Source of the DNA: Escherichia coli
GTDB lineage: Bacteria; Pseudomonadota; Gammaproteobacteria; Enterobacterales; Enterobacteriaceae
Assembly: GCF_013122565.1 (NCBI RefSeq)
Contig: NZ_CP053258.1
Strand: one strand, 5' to 3'
Length of the DNA stretch: 64,000 nt
Shown one piece after another: positions 37,260 to 42,694 of this stretch. The notes below the pieces were generated by a model. It was not told the origin of the DNA. It searched no databases and saw only the letters and a list, made by a program, of their open reading frames with translations. The position numbers and the translations under genes were made by a program. Each line of letters opens with the position of its first letter. Position 1 is the first letter of the stretch.

Positions 37260-37264
37260 TAAAT

Positions 37265-37296
37265 AACCCGGCAGCGTTTCTTCTGCGCTGCCGGGA
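37265..37296 (+). terminator. Hairpin downstream of yhjJ (possible terminator)
   Basis: Stem cccggcagcg / cgctgccggg right after yhjJ stop; weak U-tract. Confidence 0.5.
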
Positions 37297-37457
37297 TTAA
37301 CGGTAATGAATAAGTTGCCGTGATATACCCGCAGAGATTTTTCCAGGCACGGCGGTAGCGTGCAGATAACCATTCATTATTAGAATAAACTTACGGCTGT
37401 GTGAGTTTAATTATTTATTGGCTGAATAAATTGCCAGGAAATAGATGGTGTTAAATA

Positions 37458-37718
37458 ATGGCCTATCATATAGAAATATGGGAAATTGAAGAAACTGATA
37501 AAGTAGTAAAATATGAATTTGGACCTATATCTTCTGACTATTGTAGATCTGATTACGGCGAGTTCGTGATAGATAAAAGAACGGGGGAGATGACATTAGT
37601 CAGACTGGTTAAAAACGATTCGGCTAATAAATTTTATTTGCGAGCGAGTTTTAAGATTCTGACCTGTTGGCGAAAGGGCTATTTGCCAAAAACAAGGAAT
37701 GAGCTTCTTAATAAGTAA
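37458..37718 (+). CDS. Hypothetical small protein (island ORF 1)
   Basis: 86-aa ORF in AT-rich DNA, first of five co-oriented small ORFs; weak SD; no recognised family. Confidence 0.4.
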   Translation: MAYHIEIWEIEETDKVVKYEFGPISSDYCRSDYGEFVIDKRTGEMTLVRLVKNDSANKFYLRASFKILTCWRKGYLPKTRNELLNK

Positions 37719-37731
37719 CTTTGCATAATAA

Positions 37732-38028
37732 GTGAATTTTCCCATTTTTGGGGGGCAGTCGTTGATTCTTACACAGTTTATGTTATGGGTGCAGAAAAAC
37801 ACTGGGCATAATATTAAAAGCAATGCCAATACCTTATCAACCAGCATAGTTATTGATTTTGATAATGATATCCATATTGCCAGATTTACAGGTTGGGATG
37901 ATTTAAGTTGTATGTCAGAAGTTATATGCGTTGAATCGGGTGATTATAAATTAAATCAGCGAAATGAATTCCATACTTATGATTCGCTAAGGATAATATT
38001 TGATGCTTTAATAGAAAGCATACAGTAA
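37732..38028 (+). CDS. Hypothetical small protein (island ORF 2)
   Basis: 98-aa ORF starting 13 nt after ORF 1 stop (GTG in track; internal ATG possible); no recognised family. Confidence 0.35.
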   Translation: MNFPIFGGQSLILTQFMLWVQKNTGHNIKSNANTLSTSIVIDFDNDIHIARFTGWDDLSCMSEVICVESGDYKLNQRNEFHTYDSLRIIFDALIESIQ

Positions 38029-38088
38029 CTTTTTTCTTAGTAAGAAAATAATATACACGAGTATATCTAATTAAATTTAGGATAGGCT

Positions 38089-38568
38089 ATGGATTTTCAC
38101 CTGGATATTTTGCTCCCTACACGTTTCGCTCCAGAGGAACTAGATCTACAAGAGGTTATGGTTCACTGGGGTGGGGAAACCTTTCATCGCGACCCTCCTG
38201 TATACGCCTGGTGTAATCATTATCTCTTGCAGAGATGTAATATACCGATTACTTATGGCCAACCTTTAGATGAGCACATAGACTTTAATGAATACCATAT
38301 TTACAACTTCAATGGTTCTATAGTCGATGAGCTGGAAATGGCTGTGAATAAAGGAAAGGATATTTCAACCGATCCTATAATTAAAATTATTAACAACCTG
38401 ATTAGCAAAAAGTACAGGGGGTGGTTAATCTTGTCATTAGATGATGAAAAAATAGAAGTAATTAAAAATATAAGTTCCCAGTGTTCTTTTCAATCGTTAT
38501 TAGTTGATGGACTAAAATGGGAAAGACCACATGGGGTGGCAATATTATATAATTCACACTTAATTTAA
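38089..38568 (+). CDS. Hypothetical protein (island ORF 3)
   Basis: 159-aa ORF with SD-like aggatagg before ATG; no signal peptide; no recognised family. Confidence 0.5.
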   Translation: MDFHLDILLPTRFAPEELDLQEVMVHWGGETFHRDPPVYAWCNHYLLQRCNIPITYGQPLDEHIDFNEYHIYNFNGSIVDELEMAVNKGKDISTDPIIKIINNLISKKYRGWLILSLDDEKIEVIKNISSQCSFQSLLVDGLKWERPHGVAILYNSHLI

Positions 38569-38585
38569 TTAATGAAAGGAAACAT

Positions 38586-38888
38586 ATGTATCGTGCAAAG
38601 GTTGTTTGGCTTACAGATAAAGAAGGTGGTAGAAGGAGCGCTCCTCCCATCGGTAGATACTATCCCGTCTCCAGATTTCCAGAGGAGCAAACTGACTGGC
38701 AAAATAATGCATGGAGTGTTGTTTTTGAATTGGAAAAACCTAATGTAACCGATGGACGTATCGTTTCAATGGGGGGCGTTCAGTTCCTTTTCGATACTGC
38801 CCCTGCACAATGGATGACTAAGTACGAGGCATTTGAAATCTACGAAGGACCAAGAAAAGTCGCAGATGTATTCTTGATAGAAAATTAA
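38586..38888 (+). CDS. Hypothetical small protein (island ORF 4)
   Basis: 100-aa ORF with good SD (aaaggaaacatATG) 17 nt after ORF 3; less AT-rich than neighbours; no recognised family. Confidence 0.55.
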   Translation: MYRAKVVWLTDKEGGRRSAPPIGRYYPVSRFPEEQTDWQNNAWSVVFELEKPNVTDGRIVSMGGVQFLFDTAPAQWMTKYEAFEIYEGPRKVADVFLIEN

Positions 38889-38948
38889 TTTTATTTATGT
38901 CAGTCAATTTAAGCATATTTGCGACTCAACGCATGTTCAGGAGTGTAA

Positions 38949-39482
38949 ATGCGCTACAAAAAAGTCATGCTATTATTGCTAACAGTCATTCTTTGCTTAA
39001 CCGGTCTTTATTCCTGCAACAAAAATTTTCTCTTACTCTGGGATGCCAATAATATTTATGTCAGTACAAAAAATAATATCGATAAAGACAAGGTGAAAAT
39101 AGAATTCGGCATCAGCGTCAACACGATCAACCGAGAAACGGATGCCGAATTATTTGCTGACAGAGATAAGTATACCGTGCTCTTCGATGGTAGCCTGAAA
39201 AGCAAGATGATAAACGAGTACGGCGAAAATGATTTTTTAATTACCTACGATGACCGCTGCTATTTATCATTTCGTCAATTTAAAACCAATCGTCGTCATC
39301 AACATGACTATTATTTTTACTTCTTTAACAAGGATGGGAATGTCTTCGTCACGGTCGAAATTAAAGGTGAGAACCCGCTTAAATTTACACGTAGTTTAAA
39401 TGATATGCGTCAGCAGTTTTCACCATTCCGTAAGGGTAGCACTTCTCACTCCTGCAAGGTTATTTCTTCAGATCCTTCTTAA
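38949..39482 (+). CDS. Hypothetical exported protein / possible lipoprotein (island ORF 5)
   Basis: 177-aa ORF with SD aggag before ATG; N-terminal signal-like segment MRYKKVMLLLLTVILCLTGLYSC; 3-prime end overlaps the convergent lipoprotein gene. Confidence 0.5.
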   Translation: MRYKKVMLLLLTVILCLTGLYSCNKNFLLLWDANNIYVSTKNNIDKDKVKIEFGISVNTINRETDAELFADRDKYTVLFDGSLKSKMINEYGENDFLITYDDRCYLSFRQFKTNRRHQHDYYFYFFNKDGNVFVTVEIKGENPLKFTRSLNDMRQQFSPFRKGSTSHSCKVISSDPS

Positions 39483-41502
39483 ACACTGGTTCTGGACAAT
39501 CACGACCAAAATGCGCAGCCCAGTCAAAAAATTTACCGTTTTTCACGTAGCGTTGATAAATTAATGCACCGGTTTCTGGATCAAGATATCTGACCCAACT
39601 TGCAGCATGGCATAAGACGGCAGCCCATGCTTGGGTTTTAGGGTGAAGTAAATAGGCAGATTGTTCGGCCCATTCCGCAGCCTGCCAGCGGTAATGCAAA
39701 AAGTGATCATCAGCGGTGGGGATCGCGTGGCGAATACGTTTATTTTCTTTACGACTTATCCATTGATCGTTATTGCTGTATTCAAAGGGGGACGAATATT
39801 GCCCGCTGGTAATGGCATAATCGGGATACATTTCATAAGCCACTAATTCGATACCACTGAAACGCAAAAGCCGCGCAGCTTCGTATTGTGCCTGGGCGCG
39901 TTGCTTATCAGGGATGTTTTTATTTTTCGCTATCGCCATTAAATCAGCCAGTTTTTGTGCGGCCTGGCGATAATTGGGAATATCAAACCAATTGATGGCC
40001 TGCTGATATTGACCATGACGTATTAATCGTCTCCCTAATAGCGCACGTAATTTAACATCCGTTGGAATGATATCTGGCGAAATATAATAACCGTAATTGC
40101 TATTGTTTAAATCTACAGGTTTTAAAGGGTGCTGAGGTGCCGGTACGTTGTTTTCAACAAACGCCTGTAACTCCGGCAAGGTCAAAACGTTTTCTGCAAC
40201 CCAGGCTAAATCGGCCCAATAGAGATCTTTCGCCTGGTAAAACAATGCAGCCGCCTGAAGATAATCATCGCGTTTTAATGCTAAAATCGCCTGCTCACTG
40301 GCAATACGGCAAGATGGGATAGTAACTTTATCTCCATGATAATAAGGGCTTTCCTGGTCCATACTTCCCCACATTTCATCGGTCGGGAACAGCGGGACTG
40401 CGCGAGCATAGTGACGCGTTGCCAGTGGAATATCTCCGGCTCGTAATGCCATTTTTGCTTTTAACCATTCGCTTAATCCACTTTCTGGCGCATCCTCCAA
40501 CAGCGTTTGTGCTAACGAATAATTTCCTGCCCGATACGCCAGTGCTGCCAGTCGATCGCTATAACTAAATCCTTTAACTCTGTGTTGACTTAGCAACTTA
40601 ATTAAACGGTCGCGATGCGTTGGACAGGTATAATCTACAAGGTCTTCAGTACAGGCTTCGCTAACATACCCCCAGTCATGACGAATAAAGAGCTCTGCGA
40701 TTACCAGTTGCTGAACCAGTGGATCATCAATAACCGATTCCAGCAGTGGTAAATTTTTCTCCCTGGTTAGATATAGCGAAATCATTCGTAACGAAGCTTT
40801 CCCGGAGGGCGAACCCTGGGCCGCTTGCCGGGCATAAATTTTTACTGCCGCAGCGACATCACCTTTTTTCAGATAATAATGCCCAATCTGACCGAGACTG
40901 GCGAGAGAGAGCTGCTCAGGATCGGCTGCGCCATTACGGACCTCTTCAATGATTTGCTGATAACGTTGTATGGCCTGCTCAGCAATTTCCTGATTAAAGC
41001 CGCCTTTATTGATTATAAGATCGAGATTGTCGTCAGTGGCATCAAATCCCCCTCTTGCCAGACTATATAGCGCAGCAAGACGCCATTCCCCTTGCTCTGT
41101 TTTCGGTAAGGCTAATAATTGCTGAAAGTAAGGGCTATCGTATTTTCCCTGATGAAAATCCTTAGCTCCTGAATAATAAAGCCACTGCGCATCAGATAAT
41201 GGTTTCTGCAATTTTTGCGCGATTTCCAGTGACCTATTTTGCACAGGAGACTCAGCATCATCATCTGTATTTTCCTGCGTTGCCTCCGCGGGCGTATTTT
41301 CATGCCATATTGGTAAACCAGGATCGCGTTTAGCCAACTGTTGTACTTCAAAGACAAAACTGCCATTTGGCATTTCCAGCAGTGCGCTATTGCGGTCAGT
41401 TAACAGATGGTTAGGAATAAATGGTCCACAGGCATTAACATTGGCGCTAATTAGTGAGAGAAATACAATAACGGAAATCCGCGATCTATTAGGGGATAAC
41501 AT
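39460..41502 (-). CDS. Hypothetical ~680 aa putative lipoprotein with helical-repeat (TPR-like) character
   Basis: Long intact ORF; likely start is ATG at 41502 preceded by strong SD aaggagag, giving signal peptide MLSPNRSRISVIVFLSLISANVNA-C; ORF-track GTG start at 41565 is an alternative; overlaps upstream gene stop; not present at this locus in K-12 as I remember it. Confidence 0.7.
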   Translation of the reverse strand: MLSPNRSRISVIVFLSLISANVNACGPFIPNHLLTDRNSALLEMPNGSFVFEVQQLAKRDPGLPIWHENTPAEATQENTDDDAESPVQNRSLEIAQKLQKPLSDAQWLYYSGAKDFHQGKYDSPYFQQLLALPKTEQGEWRLAALYSLARGGFDATDDNLDLIINKGGFNQEIAEQAIQRYQQIIEEVRNGAADPEQLSLASLGQIGHYYLKKGDVAAAVKIYARQAAQGSPSGKASLRMISLYLTREKNLPLLESVIDDPLVQQLVIAELFIRHDWGYVSEACTEDLVDYTCPTHRDRLIKLLSQHRVKGFSYSDRLAALAYRAGNYSLAQTLLEDAPESGLSEWLKAKMALRAGDIPLATRHYARAVPLFPTDEMWGSMDQESPYYHGDKVTIPSCRIASEQAILALKRDDYLQAAALFYQAKDLYWADLAWVAENVLTLPELQAFVENNVPAPQHPLKPVDLNNSNYGYYISPDIIPTDVKLRALLGRRLIRHGQYQQAINWFDIPNYRQAAQKLADLMAIAKNKNIPDKQRAQAQYEAARLLRFSGIELVAYEMYPDYAITSGQYSSPFEYSNNDQWISRKENKRIRHAIPTADDHFLHYRWQAAEWAEQSAYLLHPKTQAWAAVLCHAASWVRYLDPETGALIYQRYVKNGKFFDWAAHFGRDCPEPVFKKDLKK

Positions 41503-42694
41503 TGAACTCTCCTTGTATTTTTTTATTGCAGCGCGCCCATCCCAGCGGACTGCTTTCTCCGGCACGCAGCTGCCTGTCGCTTATCCTTACAAAATGCAGG
41601 CTGGATGAGCCAGGTTGCACCTGATAGTGGCTTACTCCATCAGCGAATAGACAATCTGCATTGGGCAGAATTATTTGTTTTGGCAACGGCGCATCAATTA
41701 CGCCGCTGTTTTTAAAGGCCAGATCAAAAAGTTGCTTGTCTGTATGTTGAGTAATTATTAACGACCAGCGCGGAGTCAGCGGTTGATGTCGAATCACGGC
41801 TTCCAGTGTTGTCAGTGACCAGGCGCGGCGATCGCCTGCTAACGGTAGCCGAAACCATACCAACCCCTGTAATCCACGCGGTGGTTGCTGTTCTATATAT
41901 TGAATAAACTCGGCAATCGTTTGTGGAGATACACTTAGTTCTTGCATTTCATCAGCAACGTATAGCGGGGATTCGCTTTCGACACGATTATCACTGGTGA
42001 GTGCGGAGCCATAAGCGGGCAATGCGATGAAAAAAGGGTGCGTGGTTTGCCTGGCATATTGCTTTACCCAACGCTGCGCCAGACTGACATCTAACAGGCC
42101 TTTTTCGGGCGACAGCACGTTATGTACCTGGAAAACCGAAGTGTCCGCAATCCGCAATAATCGAGCGAGATGTGGTGATTCAAGCCAGGTGGGCAGGGCG
42201 GTAACGCTGAGTTTTAGATTTGTGGGAAGTGCCTGATGTAACGCACTAAGTAGGGTCTGATATTCCGGCAATTTTGCTGTTGGCGCGTCATAATCAATTT
42301 CCACCCCTGCCAGTGTAATACCTGCGTTTTGCCACTCACGTTGGGTTTGTTGAATATGCTGTATTATTTGCTGGTTATTAAGCCCTGTTAGCTGACCATC
42401 GAGTCGCGCGACCAGCCAGACCGGGCGACCATCCTGCTTAATAAGCGAAGTATTCACCGCAAAATGTCGGATGCCTTCCTGTAGATGAAATTGCATCCCG
42501 AGTATGCGCAGTGTAGAAAAAAGTGAACGGCTTTGTTTTAGAGCGCTGGTATGTTCTGCTGTCCATACACGTTGCCAGATATAGGCTTGCTGATCAAAGC
42601 GAAGCGGCTGTGAGGGGGTAAATAAATTATGCAGCCCATAACCCAGGCAGATCAGAAGAAGTGAAGCTGCAATAATCCTTTTGCAAGATGGCAT
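41489..42694 (-). CDS. Hypothetical secreted protein (~400 aa)
   Basis: 401-aa ORF with N-terminal signal peptide MPSCKRIIAASLLLICLGYGL; lies just downstream of the kdgK terminator on the same strand; stop overlaps next gene start. Confidence 0.7.
   Translation of the reverse strand: MPSCKRIIAASLLLICLGYGLHNLFTPSQPLRFDQQAYIWQRVWTAEHTSALKQSRSLFSTLRILGMQFHLQEGIRHFAVNTSLIKQDGRPVWLVARLDGQLTGLNNQQIIQHIQQTQREWQNAGITLAGVEIDYDAPTAKLPEYQTLLSALHQALPTNLKLSVTALPTWLESPHLARLLRIADTSVFQVHNVLSPEKGLLDVSLAQRWVKQYARQTTHPFFIALPAYGSALTSDNRVESESPLYVADEMQELSVSPQTIAEFIQYIEQQPPRGLQGLVWFRLPLAGDRRAWSLTTLEAVIRHQPLTPRWSLIITQHTDKQLFDLAFKNSGVIDAPLPKQIILPNADCLFADGVSHYQVQPGSSSLHFVRISDRQLRAGESSPLGWARCNKKIQGEFNVIP

Follow-up and report, generated by a model that had tools for sequence, protein, structure and literature searches.

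The 64,000-nt window analysed here (the whole stretch of DNA; positions counted from its first letter) belongs to an Escherichia coli chromosome (assembly GCF_013122565.1, contig NZ_CP053258.1) and carries, between the core genes yhjJ and kdgK, a cassette of five small open reading frames (ORFs) which is the subject of this study. All five ORFs are co-oriented on the plus strand and lie exactly where a first-pass annotation, made from the sequence alone, had placed them, with the lengths it had given. These are ORF1 (37458-37718, 86 aa, last six codons frameshifted), ORF2 (37732-38028, 98 aa from a GTG, TriTu family), ORF3 (38089-38568, 159 aa, cytoplasmic, without a family match), ORF4 (38586-38888, 100 aa, the predicted immunity protein of a toxin domain here called toxA, with a predicted fold like domain III of elongation factor Tu, EF-Tu) and ORF5 (38949-39482, 177 aa, an N-terminal membrane anchor or signal plus a periplasm-facing beta-sandwich). 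From ORF1 to ORF5 the intergenic gaps are 13, 60, 17 and 60 nt. The final 27 nt of a deleted sixth gene, ORF0, remain at 37432..37458 on the plus strand, where its stop overlaps the ORF1 ATG (TAATG).

About 93% of 37458-39482 is coding, and the cassette is as AT-rich as had been claimed, with a GC content of 36.3%, compared to 53-54% on either side. On its plus strand, 1896 nt lie in open frames of 86 codons or more, where 1000 shuffled sequences averaged 47 nt and never exceeded 879 nt; a chance origin of such long open frames in such AT-rich DNA is unlikely. The three clear Shine-Dalgarno sequences reported earlier were recovered before ORF3 (AGGA), ORF4 (AAGGAA) and ORF5 (CAGGAG). Gene order in the flanks is that of E. 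coli, with bcsC, pdeK/hmsP, dctA and yhjJ to the left and kdgK, pdeH and yhjG to the right. Because yhjJ and kdgK are separated by just 95 bp in K-12, the cassette is part of an accessory island; a description of this yhjJ-kdgK island was not found in the literature searched. Pfam detected no toxin domain in the island products, in agreement with the first-pass annotation. Neither an rhs-sized ORF nor a gene of a type VI secretion system (T6SS) was found in the 64-kb window, which is also free of toxin domains outside the island, and no DPxGL motif or junction to an Rhs C-terminal domain (Rhs-CT) appeared when the island and the entire window were translated in six frames.

The earlier statement that no recognisable motif is apparent in the cassette was too pessimistic. 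ORF2 is a clear member of Pfam family PF24689 (Immunity protein TriTu; E 9e-17) and matches Salmonella TriTu (PDB 7ZHM_C) with an E value of 5e-27, residues 13-97 aligning to residues 2-86 of 87 with 49 of 85 positions identical (58%). As this alignment opens at residue 13, the actual start of ORF2 is probably TTG 37762 (preceded by GGGGGG; 88 aa) or ATG 37780 and not GTG 37732. A truncated copy in E. coli N3 is labelled “immunity protein TriTu family protein” in RefSeq. TriTu is the immunity protein against TreTu, an ADP-ribosyltransferase at the C-terminus of Rhs-main, a T6SS protein of S. Typhimurium (Jurenas et al. 2022, PMC9825190). The target of TreTu is Asp21 of EF-Tu (PMC9825190), and TriTu acts as a lid over the NAD+ pocket of the toxin (PMC9825190; PDB 7ZHM). 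ORF2 would likewise cap the NAD+ pocket of TreTu-type ADP-ribosyltransferases, e.g. the one on S. Typhimurium Rhs-main. It resembles the Salmonella protein along its whole length (the 58% identity given above) but differs from the Salmonella TreTu/TriTu pair in being an orphan, with TreTu, Rhs and T6SS genes all absent from the 64-kb window. In a survey of 5426 complete E. coli genomes, on which all counts of E. coli genomes below are based, sequence similar to ORF2 was present in just two, at the same site. If functional, an intact TriTu in commensal or pathogenic E. coli could blunt Rhs-mediated killing by the S. Typhimurium T6SS, which bears on colonisation resistance in the gut.

ORF4 is represented by just 12 clusters among 5.8 billion proteins, and its family alignment retrieved 12 loci from 100,044 species genomes. 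In Citrobacter werkmanii (loci L003 and L005) a 68% identical homologue is located in an orphan array downstream of a VgrG-DUF2169-PAAR-Rhs set. This homologue lies 22 nt after an orphan Rhs-CT fragment reading ...PYGYVHNPLSWIDPLGL, followed by a domain of ~105 aa (KVLYRSMSLDEY...), which is toxA. The toxA domain (alignment A9) also lies 4-30 nt 5' of the ORF4-family gene in Yersinia nurmii, Affinibrenneria salicis, Morganella morganii, two Photorhabdus species and Methylobacterium indicum. A metagenome contig carries the same pair, its toxin being 68% and its immunity protein 59% identical, and Brenneria has a partial toxA copy with an ORF4 homologue. In Photorhabdus luminescens DSM 3368 (L032) toxA forms the C-terminus of an uninterrupted Rhs protein of at least 1415 aa. 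Overall, toxA directly precedes the ORF4 homologue in 8 of 14 distinct non-Escherichia contexts examined, plus the partial case in Brenneria, and toxin and immunity protein diverge in parallel, their identities being 68%/68% in Citrobacter and dropping to 49%/37% in Methylobacterium. Since conserved gene order and co-variation, here across seven genera, are the standard genomic signature of such pairs, ORF4 is predicted to be the cognate immunity gene of toxA; its product would neutralise the ~105-aa Rhs C-terminal toxin of Photorhabdus, Yersinia, Morganella, Citrobacter and others. Sequence searches of toxA against Pfam, NCBIfam and PDB returned no match. Both families were previously unnamed, and the pairing appears undescribed; an unnamed Rhs toxin domain of Photorhabdus, Yersinia, Morganella, Citrobacter and Methylobacterium thereby gains an equally unnamed immunity family as its partner.

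ORF4 homologues also occur as orphans inside other Rhs arrays, namely in Serratia marcescens, in Burkholderia and at locus L022. TriTu and ORF4 homologues are found together in three otherwise different arrays: in the window, in C. werkmanii and at L022. In the Citrobacter array, the TriTu-family gene is directly preceded by a TreTu homologue (7ZHL_A, E 2e-58) and the ORF4-family gene by toxA, both toxins being orphan Rhs-CTs. The L022 array contains TriTu, ORF4 and ORF0 homologues, the last 42% identical to ORF0 (E 4e-30). Because these families are combined in the L022 and Citrobacter arrays, the island genes evidently travel with Rhs arrays.

A check suggested by the first-pass annotation, namely to look in other genomes for the ORFs beside toxin C-terminal domains, was thus successful for the ORF4 family; it was equally so for that of ORF1. 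Among 1.84 billion representative proteins, a full HMMER scan identified ORF1 homologues of 79-85 aa with 31-42% identity, which share a conserved C-terminal ...LP..T.WAS (alignment A3). At loci L012-L014, which include CP133647.1, the homologue lies 6 nt 3' of a 154-aa orphan Rhs-CT starting NPYGYVHNPAKWVDPYGL. On a metagenome contig (L015) it overlaps the stop codon of a gene for a 358-aa protein, the C-terminal domain of which is homologous to the toxin domain of the 154-aa Rhs-CT. As a conserved toxin domain precedes the homologues in two distinct delivery settings, the ORF1 family is in immunity position, and ORF1 would neutralise a third toxin family. No family for this toxin domain emerged from sequence searches of Pfam, NCBIfam and PDB, and DNA resembling either this domain or toxA was found in none of the complete E. 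coli genomes. Compared with E. coli 042, one nucleotide of an A-run near 37688-37694 is missing from the window ORF1, which alters its last six residues; since this frameshift removes the conserved C-terminus, the window copy may be impaired. ORF0 was considered as a toxin partner of ORF1 and rejected, as it does not resemble the toxins found upstream of ORF1 homologues.

Two side observations concern the ORF1 family. At 3.67-3.69 Mb of CP133647.1 (L012/L013), a unit of ~6.65 kb is present in three tandem copies directly downstream of a full-length Rhs gene. The unit comprises an orphan Rhs-CT toxin, an ORF1-family immunity gene, a SymE-like toxin, a helix-turn-helix regulator, a primase (Toprim/DnaG zinc ribbon) and a tyrosine integrase, and it looks like a mobile element with a spare toxin-immunity module. 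The ORF1 family profile also matched cadherin repeats weakly (desmoglein-3, E 4.5e-5; in the representative library, two giant proteins, 3597 and 4839 aa long, in one of which ten stretches were matched). Homology to cadherins was rejected in favour of a shared short F.ID..TGE.T (FxID..TGE) motif, which is probably convergent.

The island is carried by ~3% of the surveyed E. coli genomes, ORF3 and ORF4 being present in 170 and ORF5 in 200 of the 5426. All copies examined are located at the yhjJ-kdgK site, with identities to the window of mostly 90-95%. Gene content varies between strains. E. coli 042 and 2013C-4282 have an additional ORF0 of 141 aa, whose stop overlaps the ORF1 start, and have lost most of ORF2 by a 278-bp deletion. 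The window has an intact ORF2 and has lost ORF0 through a 432-bp deletion, which an alignment to the DNA of L001 and L002 reveals. In E. coli N3 and GF43, ORF0, ORF1 and ORF2 are retained (ORF2 being frameshifted in N3), and an unrelated gene of 163 aa stands in place of ORF3 and ORF4. In E. coli LP-26-E1-261 (NZ_CM144251.1; matches H3 and H28) an IS1A insertion sequence (IS) sits within the ORF3-ORF4 segment. The window ORF5 protein is identical to that of one E. coli contig and has 80-87% identical relatives in E. whittamii, other Escherichia and Shigella.

The first-pass annotation had also claimed a horizontal origin. Base composition fits this claim; a recent import is unlikely. Synonymous divergence (dS) between the window and E. 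coli 042 or 2013C-4282 is 0.10-0.21 for ORF3-5 and 0.09-0.14 for yhjJ. Because the island has diverged about as much as yhjJ and has relatives at apparently the same locus in other Escherichia species, it looks like an old resident that has been lost from most lineages and not like a recent import.

The cassette had further been likened to orphan immunity-gene arrays found next to polymorphic toxin loci. This part of the proposal is supported for ORF1, ORF2 and ORF4, by homology and by conserved neighbourhood in other genera; ORF3 and ORF5 are put in the immunity class by position alone and are candidate members. Our preferred explanation, which we consider to be probably correct, is that the cassette represents a heterogeneous polyimmunity locus, in other words an orphan immunity island between yhjJ and kdgK. 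Such loci consist of tandem, co-oriented and closely spaced unrelated immunity genes, are free of toxins and vary in content between strains (Zhang et al. 2012, PMC3482391). Pre-emptive protection against non-kin toxins has been proposed as their role, loci of at least four members are termed “extended”, and a recombinase is often adjacent but not obligatory (PMC3482391). The E. coli island would thus be a tandem set of unrelated small immunity genes, probably co-transcribed and lacking a toxin of its own, in which each product binds and blocks one toxin domain injected by competitors via T6SS-delivered Rhs proteins. We infer expression, binding and protection here, and protection against contact-delivered toxins of neighbouring cells is the function that the sequence data make most likely. 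Orphan immunity islands of this kind would allow their carriers to survive contact-dependent toxins of competitors without carrying weapons themselves.

Several observations weigh against this explanation. Only three of the five genes (ORF1, ORF2 and ORF4) come with positive evidence. ORF3 has no homologue beyond the yhjJ-kdgK locus and no recognisable domain, and two of four ORF5 contexts seem unrelated to conflict systems, one being core-like (Riemerella) and the other a metagenome-assembled genome with a Fic gene upstream. A promoter and terminator scan of the island gave nothing above chance, and no recombinase adjoins it, although many polyimmunity loci have one. Signs of decay are present as well: the ORF0 deletion and the ORF1 frameshift in the window, the TriTu deletion in 170 genomes, the TriTu frameshift in N3 and the IS1 insertion in one strain. 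Some parts of the island may accordingly be without function.

The two genes placed by position raise a more limited alternative, in which ORF5, perhaps together with ORF3, is an unrelated envelope protein of Bacteroidota origin that stands beside an immunity array of three or four genes. We regard this as a serious possibility, its chances falling only somewhat short of even. ORF3 is known from only 4 clusters among 5.8 billion proteins, of which both with contigs examined (P0014 and P0016) lie between yhjJ and kdgK, and has no match in sequence searches of Pfam, NCBIfam, PADLOC, PHROGs or PDB. ORF5 is the most widely retained gene of the cassette (the 200 genomes noted above against 170 for ORF3 and ORF4). 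Its relatives are mostly from Bacteroidota (L009, L010, L018 and L019), with 45-60% identity across phyla and many invariant residues (YGENDFLITYD, SFRQFK.NRRHQHDY). Such conservation is unusually high for a cross-phylum accessory gene and implies the inter-phylum transfer of a constrained envelope protein. The core-like context in Riemerella points in the same direction, as does the lack of any structural match to known immunity proteins; the fold search, with only generic transthyretin-like sandwiches and weak matches to the lipoproteins TssJ and IglE, was uninformative. Against this alternative, ORF5 is co-oriented with ORF4 at a gap of 60 nt, and in the other two of the four contexts its homologues belong to arrays of small co-oriented genes, in Tenacibaculum with DUF1963 and SMI1_KNR4 and in Marivirga with Imm33. 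The signal-like N-terminus with a Cys that had been noticed earlier is indeed basic and hydrophobic, with Cys16 and Cys23. Because the Bacteroidota homologues have neither Cys nor lipobox there, an uncleaved membrane anchor is a more probable reading of it than a lipoprotein signal. Proteins that confer immunity to envelope-acting effectors are commonly anchored in the membrane and face the periplasm, and the predicted topology of ORF5 fits such a role. An immunity function of ORF5 is plausible.

According to a second alternative, the island is the decaying relic of the 3' tail of an ancient Rhs/T6SS effector locus, an unselected graveyard of immunity genes that is being lost piecemeal. Deletions, frameshifts and the IS1 insertion that differ by strain would be expected under this scenario, as would the retention of the island in only ~3% of complete E. 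coli genomes and the co-occurrence of its gene families in true Rhs arrays. The ratio of nonsynonymous to synonymous divergence (dN/dS) speaks on both sides. For the island genes it is 0.22-0.45 on small counts (0.35-0.45 for ORF3), far above the 0-0.04 of dctA and yhjJ, but for ORF3, ORF4 and ORF5 it is still clearly below 1. For ORF1, with a dS of 0.02-0.07, the very few changes are too few to judge selection. The check on frame conservation across strains asked for in the first-pass annotation thus came out positive. Reading frames are intact among strains at dS 0.1-0.2 and in other Escherichia species, strong Shine-Dalgarno sequences have been kept, and no Rhs core or C-terminal fragment is left, whereas relic arrays usually retain such fragments. 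In our view the island genes are real and constrained, if weakly, as judged from their divergence, and a mere relic is unlikely.

A third proposal, a small anti-phage defence or toxin-antitoxin module, had been raised in the first-pass annotation and is very improbable in the light of our data: the small genes, AT-rich DNA and variable content of this accessory island would suit it, as would the occasional occurrence of ORF5 homologues near GmrSD or AbiTii genes, but we dropped it because for all five proteins PADLOC (no matches at E<=1), NCBIfam (none) and PHROGs (only E>0.05) gave nothing significant, Pfam detects no enzymatic, nuclease, NTPase or toxin domain, and three members have specific homology or synteny to Rhs immunity proteins.

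The surroundings of the cassette deserve brief mention. The remainder of the island consists of two minus-strand genes, convergent to the cassette and with 47% GC unlike it: one at 39460-41565 for a secreted protein of 701 aa with weak tetratricopeptide repeat signals, which overlaps ORF5 tail-to-tail by 23 nt, and one at 41489-42694 for a DUF3142 protein (Pfam E 8e-75). Both genes are present in E. coli 2013C-4282 and missing from 042. Identity between the window and 2013C-4282 is 91% for the 701-aa protein and only 67% for the DUF3142 protein, which suggests a mosaic. Directly 3' of the yhjJ stop, a perfect GC-rich hairpin (37264-37295, CCCGGCAGCG-N10-CGCTGCCGGG) is kept in island-bearing strains; it has no T-run and hence was not reported by the terminator scan, and the K-12 sequence differs at this point. 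No tRNA, integrase or flanking repeats above chance were found around the island, whose neighbours are yhjJ, the 701-aa protein, DUF3142 and kdgK.

Returning to ORF4, its AlphaFold2 model, built from an 8-sequence family alignment, is an all-beta barrel with a mean predicted local distance difference test (pLDDT) score of 80.6. The predicted fold is the beta-barrel of EF-Tu domain III, and two motifs are reminiscent of that domain, EGGR near the N-terminus and FEIYEGP.KVA near the C-terminus. In this model ORF4 looks like a copy of EF-Tu domain III. Sequence similarity to EF-Tu is not significant (hhalign against E. coli EF-Tu, E 0.31; Smith-Waterman z <=2.1), and Pfam GTP_EFTU_D3 does not match ORF4 at E<=0.1; the best local alignments nevertheless land on the equivalent EGGR segment. 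Because the sequence similarity is non-significant, the link to EF-Tu rests on the predicted fold. In contrast to domain III within EF-Tu itself (e.g. PDB 4IW3_B and 5I4Q_C), ORF4 is a standalone protein of 100 aa without G domain or domain II. The literature searched makes no mention of an immunity protein resembling EF-Tu, and neither does PMC3482391, in which over 90 immunity families are catalogued. Among the AFDB50 matches to the ORF4 model are standalone EF-Tu domain III-like proteins of ~100 aa across many phyla, with representatives in Providencia, Proteus, Roseburia, Bacteroides xylanisolvens, Gimesia, Brevibacillus and Rhizobium, nearly all of them uncharacterised.

Comparison of toxA with TreTu by hhalign gave only an 18-column N-terminal match (P 0.0024), in which the invariant toxA residues R5 and E11 are paired with TreTu R6 and E12. 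The latter two both contact NAD+ (PMC9825190). The score of the toxA-TreTu hidden Markov model (HMM) comparison corresponds to p ~0.02 against shuffles, and HMMER found no match between toxA and PDB. This is a hint only that toxA might be an ADP-ribosyltransferase distantly resembling TreTu. Should EF-Tu be the target of toxA as well, a protein that resembles EF-Tu domain III would confer immunity by target mimicry. ORF4 would then be an exapted EF-Tu domain III from a widespread family, serving as a decoy that mimics the target of toxA or its docking site on EF-Tu; we put this forward as a tentative and rather doubtful idea. Were it true, the island would hold two mechanistically different antidotes, the TriTu lid and an EF-Tu decoy, directed at toxins that share EF-Tu as their target. 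The mimicry is in any case a concrete and testable structural hypothesis for the ORF4 family, which in turn suggests a target for toxA.

Among known systems, the acquired interbacterial defence (AID) clusters of gut Bacteroidales (Ross et al. 2019, bioRxiv 10.1101/471110) are similar in being immunity arrays without cognate toxins that are thought to protect against T6SS toxins of other species. They differ in their location on mobile elements or with a recombinase in Bacteroidales, whereas the island occupies a fixed Escherichia site without mobility genes, and only its ORF5 has Bacteroidota relatives. With orphan Rhs/CdiA-CT arrays (Poole et al. 2011, PMC3150448; Koskiniemi et al. 2014, PMC3967940) the island shares gene families, homologues of ORF0, ORF2 and ORF4 being located downstream of PAAR-Rhs genes in Citrobacter, Serratia, Burkholderia and at L022. 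Those arrays, however, keep toxin CT fragments with a PxxxxDPxGL junction and an adjacent full-length rhs gene (PMC3150448, PMC3967940), while the island has neither.

Agreement with the polyimmunity loci of PMC3482391 extends to their defining features. Like these, the island is a tight run of genes in one orientation (five plus-strand ORFs, gaps of 13-60 nt, ~93% coding) that is uninterrupted by toxin genes. Its content varies, the window being without ORF0, 042 without TriTu, and N3 and GF43 having exchanged ORF3 and ORF4 for the 163-aa gene. As to unrelated immunity members, ORF2 is a TriTu protein, ORF1 and ORF4 are in immunity position elsewhere, ORF0 has a homologue in an Rhs array, and ORF3 and ORF5 are candidates only. 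The island differs from the published loci in being short, with 5-6 genes of which 3-4 have immunity evidence, in having no adjacent recombinase, and in that no member belongs to the SUKH or Imm families catalogued there. The polyimmunity locus as such is a known kind of system; new are this E. coli island, the toxA/ORF4 pairing and the predicted EF-Tu domain III-like fold of ORF4.

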